From NCBI GenBank assembly GCA_020441905.1, contig JAGRLG010000024.1, forward strand, positions 17,308 through 81,307: DNA of 64,000 bases. The letters are read 5' to 3'. Source of the stretch: Rhodobiaceae bacterium (lineage in GTDB: Bacteria; Pseudomonadota; Alphaproteobacteria; Rhizobiales; NORP267). Position numbers and translations under genes: made by a program. Below, one piece after another: positions 47,060-64,000 of the stretch (position 1 is the first letter of the stretch; the number at the start of each line of letters is the position of its first letter). The notes under the pieces were generated by a model. The model saw only the letters and a program-made list of their open reading frames with translations. It was not told the origin of the DNA and did not search any database.

Positions 47060-47074
47060 GTTCAGGAGCGGGCA

Positions 47075-47617
47075 ATGAGACGCCGAGGCGCACAACCGGC
47101 CGACGATCAGGCCCCCGCTTGCGGGCCGGACGGTGGGCCAGCCGATTCCGCGCCAGGCGGCATCTTTGACGAAGTGCGCAACATGCCGGGGCATTTGCTG
47201 CGCCGGTTTCACCAGATCGCAGTCGGCGTATTCTTGAAGGAATGCGCCGATTTCGACCTGACGCCGGTGCAGTTTTCCATTCTCGCGACGCTTGCCCAGA
47301 CCAGCCCGCTCGACCAGATCCGCCTCTCCGGATTCGCCGCGCTGGACCGCACCACGATCTCCGTCGTCGTGCGCCGCCTGGAATCGCGCGGTCTTGTTGC
47401 CCGCAACATATCGGCGCGCGACCGCCGCTCGAAAATGATCTCGATCACGCCGCGGGGCCTCGAGCTGATGCACGAGATCCTGCCGCGGGTGCGCCAGATC
47501 CAGGACATATTGCTGGCGCCCCTGGCGCCCGGCGAGCGCGAGACCTTCCGCGCCCTTCTGCAAAAAGCGGTCGAGGCCAATAACCAGAATTCGCGCGTGC
47601 CGCTGCGCGGCCAGTAG
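47075..47617 (+). CDS. MarR-family transcriptional regulator
   Basis: AGGAG RBS 6 nt upstream. LTPVQFSILATLAQTSPLDQIRLSGFAALDRTTISVVVRRLESRGLVAR...DRR. Confidence 0.8.
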   Translation: MRRRGAQPADDQAPACGPDGGPADSAPGGIFDEVRNMPGHLLRRFHQIAVGVFLKECADFDLTPVQFSILATLAQTSPLDQIRLSGFAALDRTTISVVVRRLESRGLVARNISARDRRSKMISITPRGLELMHEILPRVRQIQDILLAPLAPGERETFRALLQKAVEANNQNSRVPLRGQ

Positions 47618-51108: not shown

Positions 51109-52899
51109 TCAGCCCATCAGCTGGCGGGCCAGATTCGCCGTCTCGCGCGCCGGCTCGCGATCCTCGAAGCGCTTCAGCGATTCCCGGCACAGCCGGTATT
51201 GCCGCTCCAGCGCGTCGAGCCGGCCGATCATGTGATAGGCGCGCATCGCTTCACGGTGCGCGCTCTCGGCGCAAGGATCGACCCTGAGCACGCGCTCGCA
51301 ATAGCTCAGCGCCAGCTTGGGATCGTTCATGGCGCGATGGATCGCCGCCGTGCAGGCCAGCATCTTGAGGTAGATCTCCTCGAGCCAGAAGCGCTGGCTC
51401 CAGCACCAGTCGCGCTCGGGGTCCTCGACATATTCGACCGGAATATCGGCGAACAGCGCCCCCGAATAGAGCCGTTCGGCGGCCATGTGGCAGGTCAGGG
51501 ACTGTTCGATCTCGCCAGCCTTGAGCAGTTGTTCGCCCTGGCGGCAGAACTGCTCGAAAACCGGCACATCGACCCAGGTGCCCTCGGGCAGGGTCAGGTA
51601 ATAGCGCCGGTTGCGGCTGACCAGATAGGGCGAATGGCGGCTGGACGACAATTCCGGGCTGAGCGCCATGCGCAGGCAATGCACGGTGTGATAGAGCCGG
51701 TTCAGGCTCTGGTTGAGATCGCTGGCCTCGGGCCACAGCAGATCGGCGGTTTCCTCGACGCTGGCGCCCTTGGCCCCCCTTTGCAGCAGGAAGGCAAACA
51801 GGGTCTTGGTCTTGTAGGTCGCCCCCGAGCAGCGGTTCCATGCCACCGGATTGCCGTCATGGGAATAGATGCGCAATTCGCCAAGGCAGCGGATCTTCCA
51901 GCGCTTGAGCGGCTGGCCTTGCACCGCCGGCTCGCCGAACTGGTCGATTTCGAAATTGGGCCGCACCGGCCCCATGGTGGCCTGGGCCGGCGGGCGCCGC
52001 CGCGCCGAAGGTTCCTCGCCGGTCGCCGGAACAGGAGCGATAACCGGCTTGGCGGCGGATATCGCAGCTGGCGGAGCAGCGAAGCCGTCCCCCCGCAGCA
52101 CGGTTGCCGCCTCCGGCCCCGCCGCCGGCTGGGCGCCGCTCTCGCGCAGCACCCCAAGCCACCAGTCCAGCTTCTTCGCCGCGTCGCCGCTGAGAAACAC
52201 CGGCGGCGGCAGGAAGTAGGGATTGCGCCGCGCCTCGCCCGCATCCAGCAGCGCCGGATGGGTGCGCAAGGCGTCGAGCAGCACATTGGCGGGAAACAAT
52301 TCCCGACTGTAGAGGCAGACGATTTTCAGCGGTGCCTTTTCGGCCAGTGCGTGCAGCCCGGCTTCAAGTTCGCCGAGATTGGCGAGCCCGCTCGGCGCTT
52401 CCAGCATCCACGACATGTCGATCAGCACCAGCAGGCCGCGAAACCCTTCGCCGACGGCCCCCTCGCACAGGGCCTGCAACTTGTTGACCACGGTGGTGAC
52501 ACAAACCGGCGCCGCGCGCACGGCGAACAGATCCTCGGCGCTGGAAATGGTGCCGGGCCTCCCGGCTTCCCGGCACAGCGGCGCCAGCTTGTCGCGGTGG
52601 GCGGCGGAGTCGAACAGGCCGAGCCAGCGCATGCCCCCAAGTTCCCGCGGCCGCGTCAGGGCAGCACAGTGGCGCAGCAGGTCGTCGCTATTTTCATAGA
52701 TGGTGCAGAAATGCCGGTGGCCGCCATCGAGGCCCTTTGCCGGAACGGATTCGCGGCGCGGCGCGGCGGAGGATTCGCCGCCCGCCTCGCGCCCCGGTGC
52801 CTCGGCGAGGTATCCTGCCGCGCGCGATACCACCGGCGCGGCGGCGCGCTGACGTGATTTCTTGATGCCAGCACTACTCATAATACCTGACGACGCCAC
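51109..52899 (-). CDS. Transcriptional regulator with MEDS-like N-domain, SARP/OmpR-type winged helix and BTAD domain
   Basis: N-terminal part GHRHFCTIYENSDDLL...GLLVLIDMSWML...KIVCLYS resembles MEDS/DcmR-type sensory domains. An A/P-rich linker follows. Then WKIRCLGELRIYSHDGNPVAW...LFAFLL...ETADLLWPE...LNRLYHTVHCLRMAL (wHTH), then TPR-like BTAD (...AHREAMRAYHMIGRLDALERQYRLCRESL). Start uncertain: GTG 52899 or ATG 52881. Confidence 0.65.
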   Translation of the reverse strand: MASSGIMSSAGIKKSRQRAAAPVVSRAAGYLAEAPGREAGGESSAAPRRESVPAKGLDGGHRHFCTIYENSDDLLRHCAALTRPRELGGMRWLGLFDSAAHRDKLAPLCREAGRPGTISSAEDLFAVRAAPVCVTTVVNKLQALCEGAVGEGFRGLLVLIDMSWMLEAPSGLANLGELEAGLHALAEKAPLKIVCLYSRELFPANVLLDALRTHPALLDAGEARRNPYFLPPPVFLSGDAAKKLDWWLGVLRESGAQPAAGPEAATVLRGDGFAAPPAAISAAKPVIAPVPATGEEPSARRRPPAQATMGPVRPNFEIDQFGEPAVQGQPLKRWKIRCLGELRIYSHDGNPVAWNRCSGATYKTKTLFAFLLQRGAKGASVEETADLLWPEASDLNQSLNRLYHTVHCLRMALSPELSSSRHSPYLVSRNRRYYLTLPEGTWVDVPVFEQFCRQGEQLLKAGEIEQSLTCHMAAERLYSGALFADIPVEYVEDPERDWCWSQRFWLEEIYLKMLACTAAIHRAMNDPKLALSYCERVLRVDPCAESAHREAMRAYHMIGRLDALERQYRLCRESLKRFEDREPARETANLARQLMG

Positions 52900-53086
52900 C
52901 TTTTTGCTGCCCGCTTGACCCTCTCAGCCTGCGGTGTGCCGAATGTTTACAATAGGTCATCTGTCAGCCGATTTCCTCAATATTCAGGGGACAGCCTTAA
53001 TCCGGGCCGCCGGCACCGGCGTCAATTCGCGCCATCTTGCCCGCCCCCGCGGGATGACTTCACGCCTTCGCGACAAAATATAACAA

Positions 53087-53100
53087 GTTTAAGCTTGAAC
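53087..53100. promoter_or_regulatory. Operator candidate copy 1: GTTTAAGCTTGAAC
   Basis: One of three identical 14-mers. It is an imperfect palindrome around AAGCTT, located in the regulator/adenylase divergent spacer. Confidence 0.55.
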
Positions 53101-53197
53101 TAACTAAATTGAACATGCGGCGGCGGCATTGTCAATGCACGCCAATTCGCGGCGCGGCGGAGCAGGACTGCGGCAAGGCACCACAGCCGGATATTTA

Positions 53198-53211
53198 GTT
53201 TAAGCTTGAAC
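53198..53211. promoter_or_regulatory. Operator candidate copy 2: GTTTAAGCTTGAAC
   Basis: Identical 14-mer, 111 bp from copy 1 and 56 nt upstream of ATG 53267. Confidence 0.55.
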
Positions 53212-53266
53212 GAAATTCCCATCGTCGCTACCTTCCGCCCCGCAGGAAAGATCAGGAGAAATCGGC

Positions 53267-54916
53267 ATGCTCGAAGGGTGCACCCCATGGCCGGAAGAAT
53301 TCGCTTCCCGTTATCGCCAACGCGGCTATTGGCGGGGGCAAACCGTCCCCCAGGCCATCTTCGAGGTCATCGCGCGCCATGGTAGCAAAACCGCCATCGT
53401 CTATGGCGGCCGGCGCATCAGCTATTTTGAACTTGGCCAAAGGGTCGGCGCCATGGCGCGCGGCCTGATGCGCCACGGCATCAAGCCGCGCGAGCGCGTC
53501 GTCCTGCAATTGCCCAACAGCCCCGAATTCCTCGTCGCCTTTCTTGCCCTCCAGCAAGCCGGCGCCATTCCGGTGCTCGCCCTGCCCGCCCACCGCCAGG
53601 CCGAAATCGGCCATTTCATCCGCCATGCCGGCGCCGTCGCCTATATCGGCGCCGATATCGACCGCGGCTTCGACTTCCGCGCCATGGCCGACGAGATACT
53701 GCGCCGCGAAACCAGCCTCGCCCACGTCTTCATTAACGGCGCGCCCAATCCCGGCCAGGTGGCGCTGGACGCGTTGATGGCGGCGGACGACGAAACGCCG
53801 CTCCCCGAAATCGGCGCCGGCGATATTGCCCTCATGCTGCTCTCCGGCGGCACCACGGCGCTGCCCAAGCTGATCCCCCGCACCCATGACGACTATGTCT
53901 ACAATTTCCGCCAGAGCGGTGCCGTCTCCGGTTTCGATGACGCCACCGTCTATCTTGCCATCCTGCCCCTGGCCCATAATTTCGCCCTCGGCTCGCCCGG
54001 CATTCTCGCCACCCTGGCCTATGGCGGCACCATCGTCATGTCCGCCGAAACCAGGGCCGATGATGTCTTTCCGCTGATCGAGCGCGAAAGGATCTCGGTG
54101 GTGTGCGGCGCCGTGCCGCTGGCCATCGCCTGGCTCAACTCGGACGTACCGGCGCGCCATGACCTGTCCTCGGTCCGCCTTTTCATCAATGGCGGCGCCC
54201 GCCTTGCGCCGGAACTGCGCCAGCGCCTGGAGGAGATGTTTTCCTGCACCTATCAGGAAAGCTTCGGCACCGCCGAAGGCCTGCTCAACCAGACCCGCCT
54301 CGACGATCCGGCGCCGATCCGCTTCGAAAGCTCGGGCCGCCCGATCTCGGAAGCCGACGAGATCCGCATCGTCGACGACGAGGACCGCGACGTGCCCGAC
54401 GGCACGCCTGGCGAGTTGATCTGCCGCGGCCCCTACACCATTCGCGGCTATTACAACGCGCCCGAAATCAACGCCGCCGCCTTCACCGAAGACGGCTTCT
54501 ACCGCACCGGCGACATGGTCAAGCGCAACAACGGCTCTCTCTATGTCGAGGGCCGCAAGAAGGACCTCATCAATCGCGGCGGCGAGAAGATCTCGTCGGA
54601 AGAGGTCGAGAACCTGATCTACACCAACCCCAAGGTGAAAGGCGTCTGCGTCGTCGCCATGCCCGATGCCATGTTTGGCGAGAAGGCCTGCGCCTTCCTC
54701 ATTCCCAGGGACGGCGAAACCATGACTTTCGAGGAACTGGTCGCCCATCTGGCAAAATGCAACATCGCCAAGTTCAAGCTGCCCGAGCGCCTCGAGATCG
54801 TCGATACCTTCCCCACCAGCCCGGCCGGCAAGATCCTGCGCAAGGACCTGCGCAAGATCATCGCCGACAAGATCGCCGCCGAACGGGCAGGTGGCGGGCA
54901 GGCAGGTTTGAGCTAG
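53267..54916 (+). CDS. Aryl-acid adenylating enzyme, EntE/DhbE-like ((2,3-dihydroxy)benzoate/salicylate-AMP ligase type)
   Basis: CTPWPEEFASRYRQRGYW..., LLSGGTTALPKLIPRTHDDYVYN, YRTGDMV and GRKKDLINRGGEKIS are ANL-superfamily cores with the EntE/DhbE-type variants. Confidence 0.8.
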   Translation: MLEGCTPWPEEFASRYRQRGYWRGQTVPQAIFEVIARHGSKTAIVYGGRRISYFELGQRVGAMARGLMRHGIKPRERVVLQLPNSPEFLVAFLALQQAGAIPVLALPAHRQAEIGHFIRHAGAVAYIGADIDRGFDFRAMADEILRRETSLAHVFINGAPNPGQVALDALMAADDETPLPEIGAGDIALMLLSGGTTALPKLIPRTHDDYVYNFRQSGAVSGFDDATVYLAILPLAHNFALGSPGILATLAYGGTIVMSAETRADDVFPLIERERISVVCGAVPLAIAWLNSDVPARHDLSSVRLFINGGARLAPELRQRLEEMFSCTYQESFGTAEGLLNQTRLDDPAPIRFESSGRPISEADEIRIVDDEDRDVPDGTPGELICRGPYTIRGYYNAPEINAAAFTEDGFYRTGDMVKRNNGSLYVEGRKKDLINRGGEKISSEEVENLIYTNPKVKGVCVVAMPDAMFGEKACAFLIPRDGETMTFEELVAHLAKCNIAKFKLPERLEIVDTFPTSPAGKILRKDLRKIIADKIAAERAGGGQAGLS

Positions 54917-54997
54917 GCAGGTTGAAGGCAGCGTGGCGGTGCCGCGACCGCTGCGAAGGCCCGATCCGGGGCGGGGGCGCCGCGCGGCATGAATTTT

Positions 54998-55011
54998 GTT
55001 TAAGCTTGAAC
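54998..55011. promoter_or_regulatory. Operator candidate copy 3: GTTTAAGCTTGAAC
   Basis: Identical 14-mer, 109 nt upstream of the SDR ATG at 55120. Confidence 0.55.
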
Positions 55012-55119
55012 TAGTTTTGCCACGGTGCTACGGTGCCGCCATTGGGGCCGGCTGAACCGCGCAGGAGCGCGGTTCAGCCGGGTTTGCCGAAGTAAACATA
55101 CGGGAAGAGTCAAAGAATC

Positions 55120-55905
55120 ATGTCGGACAAGATTTTCGAAGGTCAGCACGCTGTGGTAACCGGCGGATCGCGCGGCATCGGCGCCGCCATTGCCGAAACC
55201 CTGGCCCGCCACGGCGCCATGGTGACCATCATGGGCCGCAGCATCGCCACGCTCGATACCCGCGCCAGGGAAATGAGCGCGGCCAGCGGCGGCCAGGTCG
55301 CCGGCTGCGCCGTCGATCTTGGCGACCCGGCCTCGATCGATCATGCCTTCGACAATCTGAGCGGCGATTTTCCCGCGCCTTCCATTCTTGTCAACAATGC
55401 CGGCCTTGCCCTCTCGGCGCCCTTTTCCAGGACCGATCTCGATTTCTGGAACAAGATCCTTGGCGTCGACCTGACCGGCGCCTTCCTGTGCATCCGCAAG
55501 GTGCTGCCGGCGATGACCAAGGCCGGCCACGGCCGCATCGTCAACATCTCCTCCACCGCCGGCCTCAAGGGCTATCCCTATGTCAGCGCCTATTGCGCCG
55601 CCAAGCACGGCCTGATCGGCCTCACCCGTTCCCTGGCGCTGGAAACCGCCCATAAGGGGGTCACCGTAAATTCCGTCTGCCCCGGCTATACCGACACCGA
55701 CATCGTCCGCGACACCATCGCCAATATCGTCAACAAGACCGGCCGCTCGGCCGAGGACGCCCTCGCCGAACTGGTCAAGCACAACCCGCAGAGCCGCCTC
55801 ATCCAGCCCGCGGAGATCGCCGAGGCCGTGGTCTGGCTTTGCCGCCCCGAATCCGCCTCCGTCACCGGCCAGTCCATTGCCGTTGCCGGAGGGGAGGTCA
55901 TGTAA
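55120..55905 (+). CDS. Classical SDR-family oxidoreductase
   Basis: VVTGGSRGIGAAIA (TGxxxGxG), NNAG, S...YxxxK (YVSAYCAAKHG) and PGYTDT. Confidence 0.85.
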   Translation: MSDKIFEGQHAVVTGGSRGIGAAIAETLARHGAMVTIMGRSIATLDTRAREMSAASGGQVAGCAVDLGDPASIDHAFDNLSGDFPAPSILVNNAGLALSAPFSRTDLDFWNKILGVDLTGAFLCIRKVLPAMTKAGHGRIVNISSTAGLKGYPYVSAYCAAKHGLIGLTRSLALETAHKGVTVNSVCPGYTDTDIVRDTIANIVNKTGRSAEDALAELVKHNPQSRLIQPAEIAEAVVWLCRPESASVTGQSIAVAGGEVM

Positions 55906-56402
55906 TGGGCCGCGCCGGGCGCCACGAAACGGACGGCGCCAGCGCGCTGGCGGTCTGGCTCAGGCTGCTGAGTTGCAGCAATACCGTCAGCCGCAACCTG
56001 CGCCTGAATCTGAAGAACGACTTTGACGTCACCCTGCCGCGCTTCGACCTCATGGCCCAGGTCGCGCGCGAGCCGCTCGGCCCCTCGCTTGGCGAGCTGT
56101 CGCGCCGTCTGCTCGTGACCAAGGGCAATATCACCGACCTCGTGGTGCGCCTGGAAAAGGACGGCCTCGTCGAGCGCCGCCGCGACGACAGCGACGGGCG
56201 GGTGCAGCATGTCTATCTGACCGCTGCCGGCCAGGACTTGCTGGACGCCATGCTGGCGGCCCACAACCGCTGGCTCAAGGAGATGCTGGCCGATCTCGAC
56301 GCAGGAAAAGTATCGAGTCTCTATCAATTGCTCGGTGATCTCAGGCAGGCGCTTCACAGCGGCGGGGAAACCGAGGACGAGGTGGCAGCCGCCGCCCAAT
56401 AG
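55905..56402 (+). CDS. MarR-family transcriptional regulator
   Basis: ATG overlaps the SDR stop (TAATG). LPRFDLMAQVAREPLGPSLGELSRRLLVTKGNITDLVVRLEKDGLVERRRDDSDGR. Confidence 0.8.
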   Translation: MGRAGRHETDGASALAVWLRLLSCSNTVSRNLRLNLKNDFDVTLPRFDLMAQVAREPLGPSLGELSRRLLVTKGNITDLVVRLEKDGLVERRRDDSDGRVQHVYLTAAGQDLLDAMLAAHNRWLKEMLADLDAGKVSSLYQLLGDLRQALHSGGETEDEVAAAAQ

Positions 56403-56470
56403 CCGCCGGGCCGCGCCAACAGGCGCGCGGCATCGCCCAGGACAAACCGTACAACAAGGACGCGACAAAG

Positions 56471-57898
56471 ATGAAACTCCTCGAGCCGATCGATATCAAC
56501 GGAATGAAGGTGCCCAACCGGATAATGGTTCCGGCCATGGTGACGCGCCTGTCGGGCAGCGACGGCTTCGTCAACAAGGACATTACCGACCGCTATGTGC
56601 GCTATGCCGCCGGCGGCACCGGTTTGATCGTCGTCGAGGCCATGGCCATCCATCAGTCCAATTCAGGGCCGCTGCTGCGCATCAGCGACGACAAATACAT
56701 CCCCGGCCTGTCCGACCTGGTGAAGAAGATCCACGACACCTCGGATTCCAAGGTGGTGCCGCAGATCATCCATTTCCTGAAGATCGCGCGCTCGGGCTGG
56801 CGCCAGACCCTCGACATGCTCTCGCTCGCCGATATCGAACTCATCATCGAGCAATTCGGCGACGCCGTGGCCAGGGCGAGGGAAGCCGGTTTCGACGGCG
56901 CCGAGTTGCATTCGGCCCACGCCTATACGCTGGCTTCCTTCATGTCGCGCGCCAATCCGCGCAACGACGATTACGGGCGCTCGCTGGAAGGCCGCCTGCA
57001 CATGATCGGCAAGGTGATGGAAAATGTGCGCAGGAAGGCGGGCAAGGACTTTCCCGTCGGCGTCCGCTTTCTCGCCGATGAATACATCAAGGACGGCTAC
57101 AACATCACCGAGTCGCGCCTGATCGCGCTGCGCCTCGCCCAGCTCGGCTATGACTATCTGTCGATCTCGGTCGGCGGCAAATTCGAGGACGCCATCCACA
57201 AGGAAGGCGAGGTGCCCTATCCCTACACCGGCTATTCCGGCGACCGCTGCATGCCCGGCGACTGGTTCGCGCCCGCCCTGCACGCCCATCTTGGCGGCGA
57301 GATCAAGTCCTTCATCAATTCTAGGGGCTACAACACCCCGGTCATCGTCGCCGGCAAGATTTCCGATCCTGAAATCGCCGACAGGCTGATCGCCGACGGC
57401 ACAGTCGACATGGTGGCCATCGCCCGCGGCCTGCTCGCCGACCCCGACTGGGTGCGCAAGATCAAGGAGAACCAGCGCGATCACATCATCCAGTGCGACT
57501 ATTGCAACTGGTGCAAGCATCTCGACGGCACCCATCAGGAGGTGCGCTGCATCCTGTGGCCCAAGGAGGATATGCAGGCCCCGGTCTACAATGTCTCGGC
57601 GACACCCCCTGCCTGGGGCGCCGAGGGCGCCGGCATTACCGCCAAATTCGAGAAAGGCGCCGTCACCCTGGCGTGGAAGAAGGCGGCCGGCAATGTCGAG
57701 AGCTATGACGTCTACCGCGCCGACGACAGCGGCGAGGTCCATGCCACCAAGGCCGTGCGCGCCGTGCGCTGGTCCGACAAGACCGCCATCGCCGGCATGC
57801 GCTATACCTATTACGTCCGCCCGCGCGATGAATTCGGCAATGCCGGCCCGGCTTCCGACAAGGTCGAGATCGAGGCCCGGCTGGCTGAAATGGCGTAA
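56471..57898 (+). CDS. Old-Yellow-Enzyme-family flavin oxidoreductase with 4-Cys cluster motif and C-terminal Fn3-like domain
   Basis: The N-terminal TIM-barrel pattern (INGMKVPNRIMVPAM...YAAGGTGLIVVEA...AGFDGAELHSAHAYTLASF) is followed by CDYCNWCKHLDGTHQEVRC, a C-x2-C-x2-C-x11-C spacing. The last ~100 aa carry an Fn3-like pattern (VTLAWKK...VESYDVYRAD...YTYYVRPRDEFGN). No FAD/NAD(P)H Rossmann domains are present. Confidence 0.75.
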   Translation: MKLLEPIDINGMKVPNRIMVPAMVTRLSGSDGFVNKDITDRYVRYAAGGTGLIVVEAMAIHQSNSGPLLRISDDKYIPGLSDLVKKIHDTSDSKVVPQIIHFLKIARSGWRQTLDMLSLADIELIIEQFGDAVARAREAGFDGAELHSAHAYTLASFMSRANPRNDDYGRSLEGRLHMIGKVMENVRRKAGKDFPVGVRFLADEYIKDGYNITESRLIALRLAQLGYDYLSISVGGKFEDAIHKEGEVPYPYTGYSGDRCMPGDWFAPALHAHLGGEIKSFINSRGYNTPVIVAGKISDPEIADRLIADGTVDMVAIARGLLADPDWVRKIKENQRDHIIQCDYCNWCKHLDGTHQEVRCILWPKEDMQAPVYNVSATPPAWGAEGAGITAKFEKGAVTLAWKKAAGNVESYDVYRADDSGEVHATKAVRAVRWSDKTAIAGMRYTYYVRPRDEFGNAGPASDKVEIEARLAEMA

Positions 57899-58282
57899 CG
57901 CCTCGCACCTTTTCCTGCGCCTTTTTTCCAGCGCCGCCAGTTCCGTTCCGGGGCTGGCGGCGCTGTCTTGTTTGCTGCCTCCTTGCCTGGCTCCCCCCGC
58001 GCCGGCGCCGCCACCGCCTACGACCCGGGCCGGCTAAAGAATTCCAAAGTCAAACCAAAGACTTTGCAGGTCACATAGACTTGGCCTCCGGTTCCTTTGG
58101 GGCCCGCGCCAAAAAAAGCCGCGAGATCCGGCATGCAAGACCGGAACACAAGTTCGCCGGGACTTGCCGGAAACCGGGGCATTACAAGCGCCCGGCGCAC
58201 CGCAGGCCGGCAACCAGAAGGGAGAGCGATGGGCCCGAAGATTTGTCGCAGGCAAGCTTTAGGCACCTTGAATCCCTGCCGG

Positions 58283-58308
58283 CCAATTGTGCATCCCAAT
58301 TATGCATC
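58283..58308. promoter_or_regulatory. Tandem 13-mers CCAATTGTGCATC / CCAATTATGCATC upstream of the solute-binding protein gene
   Basis: Two adjacent copies with one mismatch. They also contain the inverted repeat TGCAT-N7-ATGCA. They lie about 77-100 nt upstream of ATG 58385. Confidence 0.4.
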
Positions 58309-58384
58309 CATGCCGGGGCCGGACCGCGCCACCACATTTTCCGCAAAAACAATTTGAGCAAACACAATCGACTGGGGAGAGACA

Positions 58385-59698
58385 ATGGGCAAGAACAGTA
58401 AGACAAAAGCAACCGGGGGCGGCCTGTCGCGGCGCACCCTGCTTCAGGCAACAGGCACCCTGGCCGCCAGCGGCCTCGCCACGTCCGTTTTCCGGACCGG
58501 CCCGGCCTTTGCCGCCAGCAGCACTATCAAGCTTGGTTTCGTCTCGCCGCGCACCGGCCCGCTGGCGCCTTTCGCCGAGGCCGATGCCTTCGTCATCGAA
58601 GCGGTCAACGCCTTGTTCAAGACCGGCCTCGACGTCGGCGGCAAGAAGCATGCCGTCGAGATCATCGTCAAGGACAGCCAATCCAACCCCAACCGCGCTG
58701 CCGAGGTGGCGTCCGACCTCATCCTCAAGGATGAAGTGGCCCTGATGCTGGTGTCCTCGACGCCAGAGACCACCAACCCGGTCGGCGACCAGTGCGAGGT
58801 CAATGGCGTGCCCTGCATTTCCACCGTGGCGCCCTGGCAGCCCTGGTTCTTCACCCGTGGCGGCAAGCCGGAAACCGGCTTTGAATGGACCTACCACTTC
58901 TTCTGGGGCCTCGAGGACATCATCCAGGTCTTCACCGACATGTGGGGTTCGCTGGACACCAACAAGACCGTCGGCGCCATCTGGCCCAATGACGGCGACG
59001 GCAATGCCTGGGGCGATCCCAAGCTCGGCTTCCCGCCGGTCCTCGGCAAGCAGGGCTACCGGATCGTCGATCCGGGCCGCTACCAGAATCTGAGCGACGA
59101 TTTTTCCGCCCATATCGGCGAGTTCAAGAAGAACAATGTCGAAATCCTGACCGGGGTGCCGATCCCGCCCGATTTCACCACCTTCTGGACCCAGGCGGCG
59201 CAACAGGGCTTCAAGCCCAAGATCGCCAGCGTCGGCAAGGCGCTGCTGTTCCCGGTCGCCCTCGAGGCACTGGGTGACCTTGGCACCGGCCTGTCCTCGG
59301 AAGTGTGGTGGACGCCTTCCCACCCCTTCGCCTCCTCGCTGAGCAAGCAGAGCTCGGCCGAGCTGGCGGCCGCTTTCGAGAAATCGACCGGCAAGCAATG
59401 GACCCAGCCCATCGGCTTTGCCCATGCCCTGTTCGAGATCGCCGCCGATGCCCTGAAGCGCGCCGGCGACATCACCAAGCCGGCCTCGGTGCGCGATGCC
59501 GTTGCCGCCACCGATCTCGACACCATTGTCGGCAAGGTCAAGTGGGGCGGCGGCGGGCCGTTCAAGAATGTCGCCAAGACGCCGCTTGTCGGCGGCCAGT
59601 GGCGCCGCGGCAAGACGCACAAATACGACCTTGCCGTGGTCTCCAACACCATGGCGCCGAATATTCCCGCCGAGGGCAAGCTGGAACCGATCGCCTGA
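58385..59698 (+). CDS. Tat-exported ABC-type periplasmic solute-binding protein (Leu/Ile/Val-binding-protein-like family)
   Basis: GGGGAGAG RBS. SRRTLLQATGTLAASGL...AFAAS is a twin-arginine signal. IKLGFVSPRTGPLAPFAE is a typical type I SBP start. No permease or ATPase genes are adjacent. Confidence 0.8.
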   Translation: MGKNSKTKATGGGLSRRTLLQATGTLAASGLATSVFRTGPAFAASSTIKLGFVSPRTGPLAPFAEADAFVIEAVNALFKTGLDVGGKKHAVEIIVKDSQSNPNRAAEVASDLILKDEVALMLVSSTPETTNPVGDQCEVNGVPCISTVAPWQPWFFTRGGKPETGFEWTYHFFWGLEDIIQVFTDMWGSLDTNKTVGAIWPNDGDGNAWGDPKLGFPPVLGKQGYRIVDPGRYQNLSDDFSAHIGEFKKNNVEILTGVPIPPDFTTFWTQAAQQGFKPKIASVGKALLFPVALEALGDLGTGLSSEVWWTPSHPFASSLSKQSSAELAAAFEKSTGKQWTQPIGFAHALFEIAADALKRAGDITKPASVRDAVAATDLDTIVGKVKWGGGGPFKNVAKTPLVGGQWRRGKTHKYDLAVVSNTMAPNIPAEGKLEPIA

Positions 59699-59784
59699 TC
59701 TCCAGCCCTGGCCGGATGCGATATGGCGCGGTCCCGATCCGGGGCCGCGCCTTCATCTTGTTGGCCGACCTTTTGCCGCCTTGC

Positions 59785-60567
59785 CTACCCCTCGCGCGGC
59801 ACGATCTTCTCGCGCATCATCGCCACCATTTCGGCGCCCCCGGCATAGAGCGCCTCGGGGATCTTGGAGCGGTCCATCAGCGCTGCAAGATCGACCGGCT
59901 TTCCCGATGCATAGACCATCACCGCGCCGACCCGCTCCAGCAGCAGCGAGGGCAGCGCCAGGTCCCACAGATTGATCGAACGGTCGAAGAACAATCCGCG
60001 CACCGCCCCCTTGGTCAGCAGGCAGAGCTGGTAGATCGGCGCCCCAAGGCAATAGACCCGGCCCGGAAAGTCGACCGAAAAGCTCTTGTGGTGGTTGGTG
60101 GGCCCGAAAATGAAGCTGTTGGGCTTAAGCTCAAGGCCAAGATCGGGTTGCAGCGGTGCCTCGTTGCAAAAGGCGCCGCCTTCCGGTCCGGCCCAGAACA
60201 ATTCCCCGGTCACCGGATTGATCGCGGCGCCGGCCACCGGGCGCGCGCCGTCCATCAGGCAAACTGCCGGCGTCCATAGCGGCATCCGGGCGGCAAAGGC
60301 CCGGGTGCCGTCCAGCGCGTCGACGATCCAGGAGCAGGTGGCACCGTTTCGCGGCGCCCGGTTCTTATCCGTTTCCTCGCCGATATAGCCATAATCCGGC
60401 GCCAGCGCCGCCAGCGCCGCTTTCAGGAAAGCCTCGATCGCCTCGTCGGCCTCGGTGACAAAGGTCTGGTCGCTTTTGAGCCTGGGCGCCACCTTGCCGT
60501 AATGGCGCCGGCCAAGCTCGCCGGCTTCGAGCACAATCCTCTTCAGCTCTTCGATGTCGATGCTCAC
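59785..60567 (-). CDS. Inositol-monophosphatase-family phosphatase
   Basis: GTG start after GGAGGGG. TEADEAIE, IGEE and WIVDALDGTRAF metal-binding motifs. Confidence 0.8.
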   Translation of the reverse strand: MSIDIEELKRIVLEAGELGRRHYGKVAPRLKSDQTFVTEADEAIEAFLKAALAALAPDYGYIGEETDKNRAPRNGATCSWIVDALDGTRAFAARMPLWTPAVCLMDGARPVAGAAINPVTGELFWAGPEGGAFCNEAPLQPDLGLELKPNSFIFGPTNHHKSFSVDFPGRVYCLGAPIYQLCLLTKGAVRGLFFDRSINLWDLALPSLLLERVGAVMVYASGKPVDLAALMDRSKIPEALYAGGAEMVAMMREKIVPREG

Positions 60568-60603
60568 GCGCGCCCCTCCCCGGCCGCCGCCGCAAGGTGG
60601 CCC

Positions 60604-62295
60604 TTACGACGCCCGCTCCAGGATTTCCACCACGCCGGCGGCGCCGTCGATCCTGACCAGGTCGCCATTGCGGATCGAATTGGTGGCGTTCCAGGTGCCC
60701 ACCACCGCCGGAATGCCATATTCGCGCGCCGCGATGGCGGCATGGGTCAGCATGCCCCCGGTATCGGTCACCACCCCGCCGATCTTCAGGAAAAGCGGCG
60801 TCCAGGCGGTGCCGGTAAAGGGCGCCACCAGGATCTCGCCCGACTGGACCTCGGCAAAGCCGGAAAAATCGGTCACCACCCGCGCCCGGCCCTCGACCAC
60901 GCCTGCCGAACCGGCAAAGCCGGTCAGCCGTTCGGCCACCACCTTCTCGCCCTTGGGATGCAGGATCTCGTCGATGATGCCGAACACCTTGATGGCGATG
61001 GGATCGGTCATCGTCTTGGGCACATTGCCAAGCGTCAGCGGCGCGTCCTCGTGCTTGGCCTCTTCCCAGTCGGCCTTGCGCTCGTCGATCAGCGCCGGCA
61101 CCATCGCGGCGTGATGGTAGAGCGCGATCTTCTCGCTGCGCCCCAGATCGAGAATGATCTCCTTCAGATCGCTCATGGACAGGAAGAAGATATCCTTGGC
61201 CTCCTTGATGAGGCCGATGCCGGCCAGCCTTGTGCCGACGTTGATCAGGAAGTCATGCAGCGCCGCCGTCGATCCCTGATCGATGTAGAAGCCGTGATCC
61301 TCCTGATAGGCATAGACCTTCTGGCCGATTTCGAGCATGGAGCGGAATTTCTCCAGATCTCCCGGCGGCACCTTTTTCTCGAACTCGGAGATTGCCTTTT
61401 CGCGTGCGGCAAAGACGCCCTCGCGCGCCTGGTAATAGTCCCAGCCATCCTCCATACGCTTGAAGTAGCTCTTGATGGTATTGAGCACCGGGCTGGGGTC
61501 CTCGCGCCAGGTCGAGAACAGCACGTCGAGATGGGCGGCATTGATGCGATTGCCATAGGCTTCCAGAAAATCGGCGAATTCGCCAAGCCAGCCCGCAGCT
61601 TCCTTGATGCCGCCCAGCACCCGCAGGAGGTTTTCCGTCGGCGTCGCCATGAAGATTTCCTGAAGGCCGCGCTCGCGGGCCGCCAGCGCCAGTTTCCAGA
61701 TTTCCTCGTCGGTACGCGCCGGCATGGATTCGAAGCCCTGCAGCATGGCGATAAAGCCGCCTTCGTCGAGATCCATGCCCTTGCAATAGCCCTCGAACTC
61801 CAGATAGAGCGTGTCGGCCGGATACATCAGGATGAAGTGGATCTCCCAATTGCGCCGGTTGAGGTCGTCGGCGCGGCGCACCTGTTCGATCAGCTCGGCC
61901 CAGGACGCATTGGCGACATCGAAGCCGCGCATGGCCGCGTTGTTGGCCTTCACCTCCTCGATATAGTCGGCATAGAAGCTGTCCCAGTTGTTGCGGCAGT
62001 TATCGACATATTTCGCAAATTCCTGAGCCCGCTCGGCAACCTCGCTTTCATCCTTGATCAGCGCGAAGCCGAGATAGACCCGGCCCTTGTGGATCTTGAC
62101 ATGGGCGCCCTTGGAGGGCGGCAGCTGGGTTTCCTCGGCGGCGACGTGATAGCCCCAGGCGTGGTGCTTCTGCACCGTCGTCATCCCCATCGGGGACATC
62201 GGATTGGGCTGGTGCAGGTCGTCGCGAAACCAGAAAATGTCGGCGTCCCTTTCGGGACGCAATGTGCGCAATGCCGAGATGCTGCGATCTTTCAT
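60604..62295 (-). CDS. PEP-utilising-enzyme family protein: large N-terminal domain of unknown specificity plus C-terminal swivelling phosphohistidine domain (PpsA-of-phenylphosphate-synthase-like architecture)
   Basis: The C-terminus GSAGVVEGRARVV...GEILVAPFTGTAWTPLF...GGVVTDTGGMLTHAAIAAREYGIPAVVG is the PEP-utilizers mobile domain with the phospho-His. The N-terminal ~430 aa has no ATP-grasp motifs. GGGAAGGAA RBS. Confidence 0.65.
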   Translation of the reverse strand: MKDRSISALRTLRPERDADIFWFRDDLHQPNPMSPMGMTTVQKHHAWGYHVAAEETQLPPSKGAHVKIHKGRVYLGFALIKDESEVAERAQEFAKYVDNCRNNWDSFYADYIEEVKANNAAMRGFDVANASWAELIEQVRRADDLNRRNWEIHFILMYPADTLYLEFEGYCKGMDLDEGGFIAMLQGFESMPARTDEEIWKLALAARERGLQEIFMATPTENLLRVLGGIKEAAGWLGEFADFLEAYGNRINAAHLDVLFSTWREDPSPVLNTIKSYFKRMEDGWDYYQAREGVFAAREKAISEFEKKVPPGDLEKFRSMLEIGQKVYAYQEDHGFYIDQGSTAALHDFLINVGTRLAGIGLIKEAKDIFFLSMSDLKEIILDLGRSEKIALYHHAAMVPALIDERKADWEEAKHEDAPLTLGNVPKTMTDPIAIKVFGIIDEILHPKGEKVVAERLTGFAGSAGVVEGRARVVTDFSGFAEVQSGEILVAPFTGTAWTPLFLKIGGVVTDTGGMLTHAAIAAREYGIPAVVGTWNATNSIRNGDLVRIDGAAGVVEILERAS

Positions 62296-62520
62296 GGCCG
62301 TTCCTTCCCCTTACCCCACCGGCGCCGGGGCTGACGCCGGAAACGGGCGATAACCGCCGCGCGCCTTTTGGTGAAGGCCGCGGCACACCCGAATTATTCT
62401 TGGATCGACGCCGGTCTTTTCGCTGGCCGGTTCTTAGATCTATTTGAATTCCATGATTATTTTCGGGCGGGGCATAGTCGGCGCCCCGCCCTTTCAGTAT
62501 AGCTCAAGCCGTTGCCTGTA

Positions 62521-63588
62521 CTAGGCGGCTTCCACCTTGCGCCCGCCGAGGACCATGTTCTGCGGCATCTCCGGCAGACCGAAGAATTTCTCGGCATTGC
62601 CGCCGAGCAGCAGGTTGCGGTCCTTGTCCGACAGCTTGGTTTCGTCGGCCAGGTCCATGATCGACTTGATGGCGCCTTCCGGATCTCCGACCCGGTGGGC
62701 ATAGTCGGTGCCGATCATGAGGTGCTCGACGCCAACCCATTCCATGGCGCATTTCATCGCCGGCAGGTAGAAGCTGGTGGTGTCCGGCCACACCCGCTCG
62801 CGATAGGTCTGCTCCGGGTTCTGGGAGAGCTCGAGGCCCCATTCCTTGGAATAGCCCTTCCAGGAGTCCTTGAGGCGGCGCACCAGATAGGGCGCGATGC
62901 CGCCCAGATGCGAATGGATCATCCGCAGGTTGGGATATTTCTCGAACACGCCATTGAAGATCAGGCTGATCACCGCAAGCGTCGAATCCACCGTATAGCC
63001 ATAGAGCTGATAGGGGATGCGCGACTTGTCCATGGCGGCTGCGGTCAGCGGCACCGTGGGATGCATCAGAACGGGGAGCTTGAGCTTGTTGATGGTGGCG
63101 AAGACCTCGTCGAATTTGGGATCGAACATGACGTCGCCCTGGCAGTTCGAGAACATCTGGATGCCCTTGACCCCCAGTTCCTTGTGGCAGCGCTCCAGCT
63201 CCTTGCAGGCCTCCTCCGGGTTCTGATAGGGCAGTGCGGCCATGGTGAAGATGCGGTGGGGATATTTGGCCGCTTCCTCGGCGAAATGGTCGTTGATTTT
63301 CTTGGCCCAGTAGACGCCGGCCTCCGGTTCGAGAAGTTCCGGACCCGGAACGGTCTTCGAAATGACCTGGGTATCCATGCCGGCGGCATCGAGGTCGCGG
63401 ATGCGGGCGTCCATGTCGTAATGGCCGGGGCGGTCGATATGGGCGACGATGACGTCGCCGGCCTTCATGACATAGGAGTTCTCGCCGGTCTTGATCGCCC
63501 GGCACCAGCGGCCCTGCCGGCTCTCCAGATAATCGATATATTCTCGCGGGTAGAAGTGATTGTGAACGTCGACCGTTCTCTGCACCAT
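62521..63588 (-). CDS. Amidohydrolase_2 (ACMSD-type) metal-dependent decarboxylase family protein
   Basis: Start moved to ATG 63588 (AAGGAGA plus 6 nt). VDVHNHFYP, HPTVP, MIHSHLGG and IGTDYAH are metal/active-site positions typical of non-oxidative aromatic acid decarboxylases. Confidence 0.8.
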   Translation of the reverse strand: MVQRTVDVHNHFYPREYIDYLESRQGRWCRAIKTGENSYVMKAGDVIVAHIDRPGHYDMDARIRDLDAAGMDTQVISKTVPGPELLEPEAGVYWAKKINDHFAEEAAKYPHRIFTMAALPYQNPEEACKELERCHKELGVKGIQMFSNCQGDVMFDPKFDEVFATINKLKLPVLMHPTVPLTAAAMDKSRIPYQLYGYTVDSTLAVISLIFNGVFEKYPNLRMIHSHLGGIAPYLVRRLKDSWKGYSKEWGLELSQNPEQTYRERVWPDTTSFYLPAMKCAMEWVGVEHLMIGTDYAHRVGDPEGAIKSIMDLADETKLSDKDRNLLLGGNAEKFFGLPEMPQNMVLGGRKVEAA

Positions 63589-63623
63589 GACACTCTCCTT
63601 GGGTAGGGTTGCGTTGTATTCCT

Positions 63624-64000
63624 TCATTCATCCAGATCGCGGATCTTGCGTGCCTGGAGGATGAACAGCTGTCCGTCCTGGAACGCCCATTCGATATCCG
63701 CGGGAAAGTTGAACTGTTCTTCGATGAGGCGGCCGACCCGGCACAGCTCGCCAAGCTGCGCCTCGCTCAAGGTCGGCTGCCCCGCCTTGTCGGCGGGCAC
63801 TGGCACTTCCATGCGGCCCTGGCCCTGGCCGTCATCCATCACCACCATCAGGTTCTTGTTGGCGATCGCCTTCTGGCGCAGCGCGCCGCTGGCCTTGTCG
63901 AGCAGATAGGAATCGGTCATCGAACGGCCTGAAACCACCGATTCCCCGATCCCCCAATTGGACTCGATCATGCAGTCGCCGCGCGACTTGGTGATCGGAT
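63624..64000 (-). CDS. PEP/pyruvate-binding (PPDK_N, ATP-grasp) domain protein, C-terminal part only; gene start lies beyond the window end
   Basis: The frame is open to nt 64000. WGIGESVVSG...SYLLDK...NFPADIEWAFQDGQLFILQARKI is the conserved C-terminal end of the nucleotide-binding domain of PEP synthase, phenylphosphate synthase subunit B and rifampicin phosphotransferase. Confidence 0.65.
   Translation of the reverse strand, partial: PITKSRGDCMIESNWGIGESVVSGRSMTDSYLLDKASGALRQKAIANKNLMVVMDDGQGQGRMEVPVPADKAGQPTLSEAQLGELCRVGRLIEEQFNFPADIEWAFQDGQLFILQARKIRDLDE

Follow-up and report, generated by a model that had tools for sequence, protein, structure and literature searches.

In Thauera and Azoarcus, PpsABC and PpcABCD (locus L092) join a split kinase, composed of an ATP-grasp subunit and a subunit with a phospho-histidine swivel domain, to a carboxylation that has a phosphatase component and is followed by CoA ligation and reduction. 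In the Cre system (CreHI to CreD; locus L093), a PpsAB homologue phosphorylates a phenolic hydroxyl, and the resulting aryl phosphate undergoes a further reaction before a dedicated phosphatase acts. The Hpe pathway of Rhodococcus (HpeHI, HpeCBA, HpeD) proceeds likewise and continues with a CoA ligase; its order of kinase, carboxylase, and a phosphatase specific for the carboxylated product has been demonstrated (PMC9618137). The locus described here resembles these systems in the predicted order of its reactions, and its kinase shares full-length homology and the phospho-histidine with the Thauera enzyme.

The decarboxylases related to ACMSD are reversible in vitro, acting as ortho-carboxylases of phenols at high bicarbonate; the only physiological activities that we know of in the amidohydrolase family are those of decarboxylases, hydratases, and C-C hydrolases. 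Syntrophus gentianae is a classic hydroquinone fermenter, known for its use of hydroquinone and gentisate. Its anaerobic hydroquinone pathway and that of Desulfococcus Hy5 were reportedly described by Gorny and Schink in 1994, as biochemistry only, and we know of no genes ever assigned to them. The hydroquinone carboxylase and gentisyl-CoA reductase of S. gentianae have been described as uncharacterised (PMC3727088).

We analysed a window of 64,000 nucleotides from a Rhodobiaceae bacterium, at the end of which the original prediction had read ten genes as a cluster matching no described pathway. All ten are present according to Pfam and gene calls, no product scores at or above the curated cut-off for any characterised equivalog family in a TIGRFAM/NCBIfam-type check, and a full-text literature search found no description of this enzyme combination. 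The cluster is real, widely conserved, and uncharacterised; from the gene content, homologies, and conserved synteny observed here, we infer the functions of all genes, every reaction, and the substrate. Its features are as follows.

51109..52899, minus strand: SARP-like regulator with MEDS, (winged-helix), and BTAD domains (Pfam MEDS 6e-18, BTAD 1e-17)
53087..53100, no strand: operator-like 14-bp near-palindrome GTTTAAGCTTGAAC, copy 1
53198..53211, no strand: near-palindrome, copy 2, 56 nt 5' of the adenylase start codon (ATG)
53267..54916, plus strand: aryl-acid adenylase/CoA ligase of the EntE/DhbE class (AMP-binding; PDB matches CahJ 2.7e-161, DhbE 4.4e-158)
54998..55011, no strand: near-palindrome, copy 3, upstream of the SDR gene
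55120..55905, plus strand: short-chain dehydrogenase/reductase, SDR (Pfam adh_short 6e-56)
55905..56402, plus strand: MarR regulator (Pfam MarR_2 8e-13; gene call of 165 aa)
56471..57898, plus strand: short FMN/[4Fe-4S] OYE-family reductase that has an Fn3-like tail but lacks a FAD/NAD(P)H domain (Oxidored_FMN 4e-44)
57929..57965, plus strand: terminator-like 17-bp stem 3' of the OYE gene
58385..59698, plus strand: LIV-type solute-binding protein, predicted to be Tat-exported (Peripla_BP_6 4e-35; SRRTLL twin-arginine leader)
59725..59751, plus strand: terminator-like hairpin where the binding-protein and IMPase genes converge
59785..60567, minus strand: dedicated IMPase-family phosphatase (Inositol_P 1e-27)
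60604..62295, minus strand: PpsA/CreH-like kinase subunit with substrate-binding and phospho-histidine swivel domains (Rph_4th and PEP-utilizers)
62521..63627, minus strand: ACMSD-like Amidohydro_2 enzyme, the proposed carboxylase (PF04909 3e-41)
63624..64000, continuing to about 64592, minus strand: PpsB/CreI-like ATP-grasp kinase subunit, C-terminal 125 codons (PPDK_N; 322 aa in contig L001)

Only the PPDK_N gene is cut by the window end. Past position 64,000, identical metagenome contigs (L001-L006) carry the remainder of this gene, with which the cluster ends about 590 bp (592 nt) beyond the window, and then unrelated genes encoding an M42 peptidase, a GNAT/ATP-grasp protein, and an asparagine synthase, a trio that we take to be an N-acetylglutaminylglutamine-amide osmoprotectant set. 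The cluster had been called incomplete; its last gene is indeed cut, but it is otherwise all in the window. Its GC content is 0.637, versus 0.653 in the remaining window; the accessory status first given to it is not confirmed.

The neighbourhood is kept across at least six phyla. Among the 80 genomes or loci compared, the ATP-grasp subunit adjoins the ACMSD-like amidohydrolase in 70, which contradicts chance juxtaposition, and the amidohydrolase has nearby the His-domain subunit (47/80), the ligase (52/80), the OYE (44/80), and the binding protein (40/80). The genomes are widely spread over soil, peat, and groundwater, and the deltaproteobacterial clusters are accompanied by genes for enoyl-CoA hydratase, 3-hydroxyacyl-CoA dehydrogenase, and acyl-CoA dehydrogenase. 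Conserved synteny agrees with the original reading of one pathway, but the locus consists of two separable modules, which counts against a single two-module pathway: module II stands alone in Magnetospirillum sp. 15-1, and the two closest relatives (L007 and L008) have no module II within 10 kb. Module I comprises the binding protein for uptake, both subunits of the kinase, the amidohydrolase as the proposed carboxylase, and the IMPase-family phosphatase; module II comprises the adenylase/ligase, OYE, SDR, and MarR.

Most likely, the cluster would let bacteria break down a phenol, at best guess hydroquinone, without oxygen by an ATP-driven ortho-carboxylation. In module I, the phenol would be captured by the binding protein, converted to an aryl phosphate by the PpsAB/CreHI-type two-subunit kinase with expenditure of ATP, carboxylated ortho to a hydroxyl by the ACMSD-like metal enzyme, and relieved of its phosphate by the dedicated phosphatase. 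The latter might act during phenolate generation, as the delta subunit does in phenylphosphate carboxylase, or later, with the carboxylated product as its substrate, as in the case of HpeD; with either timing, an otherwise unfavourable carboxylation would become irreversible.

The Peripla_BP_6 match and SRRTLL leader agree with the Tat-exported binding protein originally proposed. Orthologues in the 40 loci mostly occur with ABC permease and ATPase genes, whereas the window holds no transporter genes for it, which counts against an uptake role here; with the binding protein that accompanies the stand-alone module II, the protein shares only 21% identity. The split PEP-synthase-type phosphotransferase, likened earlier to the Thauera enzyme, is a homologue of both PpsAB and CreHI: the 60604-62295 protein aligns over its full length with CreH (29%, 2e-68) and PpsA (26%, 2e-63), its His518 aligns with the phospho-histidine His569 of PpsA, and the ATP-grasp subunit is 36-37% identical to PpsB and CreI. 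The stop codon of the latter gene overlaps the amidohydrolase start by 4 nt.

The best PDB match of the amidohydrolase is ACMSD (3e-38), followed by LigW and the gamma-resorcylate, 2,3-DHB, and salicylate decarboxylases; its closest characterised relatives are all decarboxylases. The metal and catalytic residues H22, H24, H189, H240, D308, and R251 align with those of ACMSD. More than 300 orthologues (52-82% identity) form a clade with its own invariant motifs, e.g. AHIDRxGHYD and GTDYAHRVGDPEG. The clade is tied by its genomic setting to a kinase that uses ATP and to a phosphatase, which implies a carboxylating physiological direction, not known for the ACMSD-related family. Three points count against this role: the substrate-binding Arg47 of ACMSD is not conserved (A62/H63 at the aligned position), the family history is of decarboxylases, hydratases, and hydrolases only, and a phosphorylated hydroxyl deactivates the ring for CO2 attack, unless there is a second free hydroxyl or a concerted dephosphorylation.

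The IMPase-family protein contains the GEE, DxLDGT, and WDxA motifs and scores far below the HisN, CysQ, and SuhB cut-offs; orthologues with 61-69% identity come after the His-domain subunit gene in 20 loci. A phosphatase occurs in 64 of the 80 loci, as an IMPase type in 20, a HAD type in 44, and never both, a mutual exclusion that is non-orthologous displacement. The phosphatase, listed before as a cluster part, can thus be described more precisely as an integral and replaceable part of the carboxylation module.

In module II, the ortho-hydroxybenzoate would be converted to its CoA thioester, the OYE would catalyse a dearomatisation or a reductive dehydroxylation with low-potential electrons, and the SDR would work on the reduced product. 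The adenylase scores 559 bits against TIGR02275, below the 724-bit cut-off, and no carrier protein or NRPS lies near it. It keeps His234-Asn235 of DhbE, the pair with which DhbE-type ligases read an ortho-hydroxyl, and differs in the pocket by Y236F, V329S, M332T, and V337L. Ligases of the alphaproteobacterial and deltaproteobacterial loci and of some actinobacterial ones keep the His-Asn pair; the loci of Chloroflexi and Gaiellales/Thermoleophilia have an unrelated ligase family without it, which counts against the proposed pathway. The [4Fe-4S] motif of the OYE (C342-x2-C-x2-C-x11-C360) is kept in 42 of 44 orthologues, the reductase domain is absent from all, and the best fold match of the structure model is 2-naphthoyl-CoA reductase (6qkg, 1e-24). 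As the enzyme has no FAD/NAD(P)H-binding domains, its electrons must come from a separate donor. The Fn3-like tail noted previously is found again: in the structure model (pLDDT 80), residues 380-470 form a 7-strand beta sandwich, and Pfam fn3 or Fn3_SaeA_3rd matches the tail in orthologues. Alphaproteobacterial versions, which have the tail, are 475 aa long; those of most lineages have 376-396 aa. The SDR best matches 3-hydroxybutyrate dehydrogenase in NCBIfam (241 bits, below cut-off) and shares 60% identity with its counterpart in the Magnetospirillum module II.

Pfam detects the MEDS and BTAD domains of the first regulator but not the winged helix assigned between them; orthologues (43-55% identity) adjoin kinase/carboxylase genes in 9 related loci, and this protein probably controls module I. 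The MarR gene starts at 55905 according to gene calls, overlapping the SDR stop, and its product is 53% identical to the MarR of the Magnetospirillum module. Exactly three exact copies of GTTTAAGCTTGAAC occur (53087, 53198, and 54998; 0.1 expected), and the sequence is specific to this organism. As all three lie upstream of the adenylase or SDR gene, the repeat links two promoters, as had been claimed, but of the ligase/OYE half only, not of the kinase/carboxylase half. It is probably a MarR operator, through which MarR probably controls module II.

The proposed ortho-hydroxybenzoate-type chemistry gains from the ligase His-Asn pair, from gentisate-dioxygenase-family genes embedded in five related loci (L016, L018, L035, L020, and L023; products below both the gentisate and 5-aminosalicylate equivalog cut-offs), from a canonical gentisate operon (3-hydroxybenzoate-6-hydroxylase and gentisate dioxygenase) at 43878-47617, 3.5 kb upstream of the cluster, and from the full cluster carried by S. 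gentianae. The product predicted from these clues is an ortho-hydroxybenzoate, perhaps gentisate; hydroquinone, the most specific guess at the substrate, is a circumstantial assignment made by way of S. gentianae. We assign a probability of roughly 0.55 to a two-module phenolic catabolism by kinase, ACMSD-like carboxylase, phosphatase, ligase, and OYE in which hydroquinone would pass through 4-hydroxyphenyl phosphate and gentisate to gentisyl-CoA. The original prediction is partly supported: its core survived every test run, with refinements or corrections concerning modules, palindrome, phosphatase, completeness, transporter, and substrate.

The same architecture might serve another phenol, a possibility that we regard as unlikely: phenol would yield salicylate; catechol, 2,3-dihydroxybenzoate; resorcinol, 2,4- or 2,6-dihydroxybenzoate; 4-aminophenol, 5-aminosalicylate; a naphthol is a further option. 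The adenylase is about equally similar to salicylate- and 2,3-DHB-activating enzymes (Ser240 is DhbE-like, Phe236 and Leu337 are salicylate-enzyme-like), the embedded L020 dioxygenase scores best against 5-aminosalicylate dioxygenase, and the environmental spread fits a common phenol. The OYE would in that case dearomatise CoA esters of the salicylyl type; by atom count, a single two-electron reduction of salicylyl-CoA would give an isomer of 6-oxocyclohex-1-ene-1-carbonyl-CoA, on which ring opening takes place in the benzoyl-CoA pathway, and the hydratase and dehydrogenase genes of the deltaproteobacterial clusters fit. The neighbouring gentisate pathway and the full cluster in the hydroquinone and gentisate user S. 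gentianae (PMC3727088) speak against it, although both are also compatible with other phenols.

It is considerably less probable that the amidohydrolase is a C-C hydrolase or decarboxylase acting on a phosphorylated enol or cyclic beta-diketone, with the kinase activating an enol, not a phenol. Enolate phosphorylation is the ancestral chemistry of the PEP-synthase family, and alicyclic chemistry would suit the neighbouring genes for a BadH-like SDR, an acyl-CoA dehydrogenase, and an enoyl-CoA hydratase. SRAH, which hydrolyses a beta-diketone of steroid ring A (PMC11780191), also belongs to Amidohydro_2, as does an uncharacterised protein of the naphthalene thn operons (PMC6849830). However, the nearest solved relatives are all decarboxylases and the ACMSD catalytic set is kept, a hydrolase route leaves a stable phosphate ester and a dedicated phosphatase unexplained, and both the gentisate-dioxygenase-family genes and the ligases with the His-Asn pair point to an aromatic acid with an ortho-hydroxyl. 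We give almost no credence to unrelated neighbours or a biosynthetic or resistance set (siderophore adenylase, rifamycin-phosphotransferase-like kinase): a siderophore enzyme is the best family match of the adenylase and the kinase domains are common to Rph, PigC, and RedH, but the gene order kept across phyla already contradicts this, gene calls and Pfam found no carrier protein, NRPS, or isochorismate genes in the cluster, and the kinase is split like PpsAB and CreHI, not fused like Rph.

Under the preferred reading, ortho-carboxylation of hydroquinone, the cluster departs from each known system. Its kinase shares only 26% (alpha) and 36% (beta) identity with PpsAB, whereas PpsA and CreH are 43% identical to each other, and it has no CBS-domain PpsC. 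In place of UbiD/UbiX, the proposed carboxylase is a metal-dependent enzyme of the amidohydrolase fold, from which ortho and not para carboxylation is expected; its IMPase or HAD_2-type phosphatase has no detectable similarity to PpcD. In Hpe a biotin enzyme carboxylates the side-chain methyl and in Cre a P450 oxidises the methyl group, whereas the ACMSD-like enzyme is expected to act on the ring; the phosphatases also come from different families, as Hpe has a NagD-like HAD enzyme, Cre an HD-domain protein, and this cluster an IMPase. With ACMSD, LigW, and the gamma-resorcylate, 2,3-DHB, and salicylate decarboxylases, the amidohydrolase shares Pfam family and metal and catalytic residues, but its similarity to ACMSD is modest (E = 3e-38) and its clade motifs and kinase/phosphatase partners are its own. 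The OYE has the TIM barrel and subsequent CxxCxxCx11C [4Fe-4S] motif of 2-naphthoyl-CoA reductase (type III aryl-CoA reductases) and FadH, but entirely without their FAD/NAD(P)H-binding domains. The conversion of hydroquinone to gentisate and gentisyl-CoA with subsequent reduction in S. gentianae and Hy5 fits the predicted enzyme order; ATP-dependent phosphorylation is, to our knowledge, absent from that published scheme, and the link made here is only genomic. If this reading is true, a family otherwise known for CO2 removal would perform an ATP-spending ortho-carboxylation of a phenol, and the cluster would supply candidate genes for the hydroquinone carboxylase and gentisyl-CoA reductase of S. 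gentianae.

Because the region, at about 64% G+C, yields many spurious open reading frames (ORFs), both strands were searched against Pfam at every position. Exactly one ORF per position had a family match, giving ten genes, the same ten that the original prediction had named.

Genes of the cluster in the window (families from Pfam)
51109-52899, minus strand, MEDS+BTAD regulator
53267-54916, plus strand, AMP-binding enzyme (ligase)
55120-55905, plus strand, SDR
55905-56402, plus strand, MarR (55905 is the true start)
56471-57898, plus strand, Oxidored_FMN protein (OYE)
58385-59698, plus strand, Peripla_BP_6 binding protein with an SRRTLL leader
59785-60567, minus strand, IMPase-family protein
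60604-62295, minus strand, Rph_4th/PEP-utilizers protein (His-domain subunit of the kinase)
62521-63627, minus strand, Amidohydro_2 protein (amidohydrolase)
63624-64000, minus strand, PPDK_N protein (ATP-grasp subunit of the kinase), C-terminus; the gene leaves the window

The amidohydrolase sequence was found exactly, in the same gene order, on several metagenome contigs that extend beyond the window (L001-L006). The cluster had been thought incomplete; one gene is indeed cut by the window end, but on these contigs the cluster is otherwise complete, with 592 nt missing from the window. The cut gene encodes a 322-aa ATP-grasp protein and shares 4 nt, at its stop, with the start of the amidohydrolase gene. 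On the upstream side of the cut gene are genes for an M42 peptidase, a GNAT/ATP-grasp protein and an asparagine synthase-like protein (L001 3263-8052, past the window end), which we take to be an N-acetylglutaminylglutamine-amide osmoprotectant set unrelated to the cluster; these genes mark the cluster end. Malate synthase G (47648-49843) and a MetE-like gene (49901-51019), both between a gentisate operon and the cluster, were excluded as members because neither co-occurs with it elsewhere.

Homologues of the amidohydrolase number more than 300 (identity 52-82%), and taking one genome per species left 80 loci. These belong to Alphaproteobacteria (including Roseiarcus fermentans), Acidobacteriota, Chloroflexota, Actinomycetota, Thermodesulfobacteriota (Desulfatiglandales, Syntrophaceae, Syntrophorhabdales and Desulfocarbo indianensis) and one member of the Peptococcaceae; the nearest of the surveyed loci is in a Xanthobacteraceae genome (82% for the amidohydrolase). 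Neighbours were counted by tblastn with the window proteins and by independent clustering of all ORFs in the 80 loci.

Neighbours of the amidohydrolase gene
ATP-grasp subunit, adjoining the amidohydrolase: 70/80 loci
AMP-binding ligase: 52/80 loci
His-domain subunit: 47/80 loci
OYE: 44/80 loci
Binding protein, mostly with ABC permease and ATPase genes: 40/80 loci
SDR: 29/80 loci
MEDS-BTAD regulator: 9/80 loci

The synteny in these counts removes chance juxtaposition, which had been proposed as a possible refutation. A second amidohydrolase paralogue occurs inside the same locus in L047, L049, L054, L060, L014 and L085, and an isolated second copy in an uncultured Syntrophus chromosome (L071). 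The module is abundant in genomes from peat, soil, groundwater and sediment, and so may aid the turnover of plant or humic phenolics where oxygen is scarce.

Two gene orders recur. The core order ATP-grasp subunit, amidohydrolase, His-domain subunit, IMPase is found in Alphaproteobacteria, Chloroflexota, some Actinomycetota and Terriglobia. Thermodesulfobacteriota and other lineages have ATP-grasp subunit, amidohydrolase, HAD-like hydrolase, a protein of about 212 aa, in some cases the His-domain subunit, then OYE, ligase, SDR and acyl-CoA dehydrogenase. An IMPase is present in 20 and a HAD protein in 44 of the 80 loci, and both together in none; two unrelated phosphatases in one slot argue that the module requires a phosphatase step. 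The IMPase has the metal motifs GEE, DxxDGT and WDxA, and its best equivalog match is HisN (98 bits against a cut-off of 275), the score being far below the CysQ and SuhB cut-offs too. In clusters of the deltaproteobacterial type the HAD phosphatase gene always has the conserved ~212-aa protein on its 3' side (44 loci besides L062 11881-12552). Searches of Pfam, NCBIfam and PDB gave no relative for this protein, and neither the window nor the IMPase-type loci encode a homologue.

The two halves of the cluster also occur separately. Magnetospirillum sp. 15-1 (L094 7990-17706) carries SDR, MarR, ligase and an OYE with the Fn3-like tail, which are 53-67% identical to their window counterparts, and has no kinase or amidohydrolase nearby; its ABC transporter and its unrelated binding protein are its own, the latter only 21% identical to that of the window. 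The window's two closest relatives (L007 and L008) hold the kinase/carboxylase set, binding protein, transporter and regulator, with no ligase or OYE within 10 kb. For this reason we read the window as two modules: module I, comprising binding protein, kinase, amidohydrolase and phosphatase, and module II, comprising ligase, SDR, MarR and OYE. The Magnetospirillum module is a genetically easier place for testing the ligase/OYE half. The solved relatives of the binding protein are too distant (best E-value 2e-9) to indicate its ligand. Flanking the cluster in nine loci (L095 7830-8888, in Syntrophus gentianae; L072 16431-17522; 7 others) is a gene for a polytopic membrane protein of about 355 aa, for which Pfam gave no match; this protein may be the substrate permease where the binding protein is absent.

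The 14-bp near-palindrome noted earlier is real: the 14-mer GTTTAAGCTTGAAC has three exact copies against 0.1 expected, confined to positions upstream of the adenylase (ligase) and SDR genes and absent from every other locus among 91 searched. By this distribution the palindrome is not an operator common to all promoters; its three copies are likely the MarR operator, and the MEDS-BTAD regulator probably controls module I. Strong hairpins lie 3' of the OYE and binding-protein genes. A tandem direct repeat, CAATTGTGCATCC CAATTATGCATCC, at window 58284-58309 precedes the binding-protein gene by about 80 nt, and a similar single copy, AATTGCGCATC, lies upstream of the ATP-grasp gene (L001 8167-8177); these AATTGTGCATCC-like repeats are a possible SARP-type activator site, but their number is not significant (6 matches against 3.4 expected). 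The amidohydrolase and His-domain kinase genes are 225 nt apart, and the gap holds a GC-rich hairpin (window 62465-62491; 9-bp stem GGGCGGGGC/GCCCCGCCC) with no U-run after it. No Rfam family was found in 50.5-64 kb, and a sigma-70 promoter scan gave matches at chance level.

The best solved relatives of the amidohydrolase are ACMSD (3e-38) and then LigW and the gamma-resorcylate, 2,3-dihydroxybenzoate, uracil-5-carboxylate and salicylate decarboxylases. The PF04909 fold is present, with the HxH of strand 1, the histidines of strands 5 and 6 and the Asp of strand 8; all 15 orthologues compared share H22, H24, H189, H240 and D308, which align with the metal ligands and catalytic His of ACMSD. 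One substrate Arg of human ACMSD, R235, aligns with R251, and R47 of the human enzyme aligns with A62/H63, an invariant R66 standing three residues further on. The clade has invariant motifs of its own. In a rival reading the protein may be a decarboxylase, or a C-C hydrolase like SRAH, the steroid ring-A beta-diketone hydrolase of the Amidohydro_2 family (PMC11780191), rather than the carboxylase that we propose.

The ligase is very close to CahJ and DhbE but scores below the equivalog cut-off for (2,3-dihydroxybenzoyl)adenylate synthase (TIGR02275, 559 bits against a cut-off of 724); it retains the His234-Asn235 pair, which reads the ortho-hydroxyl. The pair is also present in the distant (~34% identical) ligases of deltaproteobacterial and some actinobacterial clusters; Chloroflexi and Gaiellales/Thermoleophilia loci have an unrelated ligase instead. 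The cluster holds no aryl carrier protein or NRPS partner, and the enzyme would act as a CoA ligase. A siderophore or resistance set is contradicted by the synteny and by the absent partner genes.

The OYE combines its barrel with a [4Fe-4S] Cys motif of the FadH/NCR type, kept in 42 of 44 orthologues, none of which has a reductase domain. It ends at residue 475 in an Fn3-like tail, without C-terminal FAD and NAD(P)H domains, and its matches to 640-aa family models end near model position 360. The predicted model (pLDDT 80) has a barrel and a 7-strand tail, and its best fold match is 2-naphthoyl-CoA reductase. If our assignment is right, no other aryl- or enoyl-CoA reductase of this type would be as small as the short Fe-S OYE. 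In Syntrophaceae-type clusters, genes for tungsten-type aldehyde:ferredoxin oxidoreductases (8 loci) adjoin OYE/ligase, as do formate-dehydrogenase-like molybdopterin genes (13 loci), where the ORF seems to be cut short, perhaps by a selenocysteine codon; such loci are L039 (11242-13098), L040, L053, L068, L070, L081 and L057 (6720-8336). Proteins of both kinds are possible electron donors for the OYE.

Four independent hints point to an ortho-hydroxybenzoate as product: the His-Asn ligases, embedded dioxygenases, a gentisate operon in the window and S. gentianae. Bicupin dioxygenases of the gentisate/salicylate/5-aminosalicylate family, which to our knowledge cleaves only salicylate-type substrates, lie inside the cluster in L016 (13649-14767), L020 (12761-13915), L023 (9602-10657), L018 and L035, all scoring below both equivalog cut-offs (gentisate and 5-aminosalicylate). 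A canonical aerobic gentisate operon (window 43878-47617, plus strand) lies 3.5 kb upstream of the cluster, with 3-hydroxybenzoate 6-monooxygenase (530 bits, cut-off 459), gentisate 1,2-dioxygenase (544 bits, cut-off 442), an FAH-family hydrolase and a second MarR. The deltaproteobacterial orthologue matches an S. gentianae protein at 99% identity, and no S. aciditrophicus protein is among its best 120 matches. The S. gentianae row, at FOBS01000004.1 positions 134041-155069, reads enoyl-CoA hydratase, membrane protein, ATP-grasp subunit, amidohydrolase, HAD, ~212-aa protein, His-domain subunit, OYE, ligase, 3-hydroxyacyl-CoA dehydrogenase and MFS transporter. Hydroquinone degradation via gentisate and gentisyl-CoA was described in this organism, and in a 2013 review the hydroquinone carboxylase is termed "uncharacterized" and the enzyme that reduces gentisyl-CoA is said to need characterisation (PMC3727088). 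Gentisate is the more weakly indicated product, and the substrate may be another phenol.

We infer all functions from sequence, synteny and the published physiology of one organism. The phosphatase subunit of phenylphosphate carboxylase (Ppc) reportedly delivers phenolate (Schühle and Fuchs). The Hpe pathway begins with the kinase step; its carboxylase takes the phosphorylated substrate only, and HpeD prefers the carboxylated phosphate (PMC9618137). From these precedents two models are workable. In a Ppc-like model, carboxylation would be concerted with dephosphorylation. A ratchet model would suit a diphenol, for example hydroquinone: with one hydroxyl phosphorylated, the free one would direct the amidohydrolase to carboxylate reversibly at the ortho position, and the equilibrium would be pulled by a phosphatase acting specifically on the carboxylated ester; phosphorylation would also shield hydroquinone from autoxidation in aerobes. 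The ligase would then form the CoA ester, to be reduced by the Fe-S OYE with an external low-potential donor. An atom count would make the product of a single two-electron reduction of salicylyl-CoA an isomer of 6-oxocyclohexenecarbonyl-CoA; with gentisyl-CoA, loss of water after the reduction would amount to dehydroxylation.

The boldest reading, to which we give a probability of about 30%, is of an ATP-driven hydroquinone carboxylase (PpsAB-like kinase, amidohydrolase-fold carboxylase and pull-through phosphatase) together with a gentisyl-/salicylyl-CoA reductase, the minimal FMN/[4Fe-4S] OYE. If true, two long-missing enzymes of anaerobic hydroquinone degradation would be found, and phenols would be converted into aliphatic CoA esters independently of benzoyl-CoA reductase over at least six phyla. 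The genes for both steps, still uncharacterised according to the 2013 review some two decades on from Gorny & Schink 1994, would be open to direct test in the culturable S. gentianae DSM 8423. We know of no ring carboxylation of phenols in anaerobes by other than UbiD-type enzymes; a metal-dependent, ortho-directing, ATP-coupled second solution would be a new entry among the few biological aromatic carboxylases, and the amidohydrolase fold would gain its first physiological carboxylase. Biocatalytic Kolbe-Schmitt chemistry runs the same enzyme family in reverse, with thermodynamics limiting, and the cluster would offer it a natural template.

As reference loci we used the Azoarcus sp. KH32C phenol cluster (L092; ppsABC, ppcBDAG, UbiD, UbiX) and the Rhodococcus ruber cresol cluster. 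The predicted kinase has the split architecture of PpsAB, CreHI and HpeHI, with a PPDK_N ATP-grasp subunit (322 aa) and a substrate-binding/His-swivel subunit (563 aa). End to end, the His-domain subunit aligns with PpsA (26%, 2e-63) and CreH (29%, 2e-68), and the ATP-grasp subunit is 36-37% identical to PpsB and CreI, the E values for the two subunits against PpsA/CreH and PpsB/CreI spanning 1e-55 to 1e-68; identity among the references is 43% for PpsA-CreH and 50% for PpsB-CreI. His518 aligns with PpsA His569, in a motif kept in 44 of 47 orthologues. By sequence, the window-type kinase is a distinct clade among the two-subunit aryl kinases, branching deeper than the PpsA-CreH pair. UbiD/UbiX genes, present in the Azoarcus locus, are absent from 51-64 kb and from the L001 extension, and neither the IMPase nor the HAD protein has detectable similarity to PpcD, so that their likeness to it is a functional analogy only. 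The benzene-activation paper PMC13101534 is unrelated. As originally predicted, the enzyme combination matches no described pathway in a full-text search of the open literature. The kinase-carboxylase-phosphatase logic is already known; within the literature searched, what appears undescribed is an ACMSD-like carboxylase locked to the kinase across phyla and, likewise, its pairing with a minimal Fe-S OYE.
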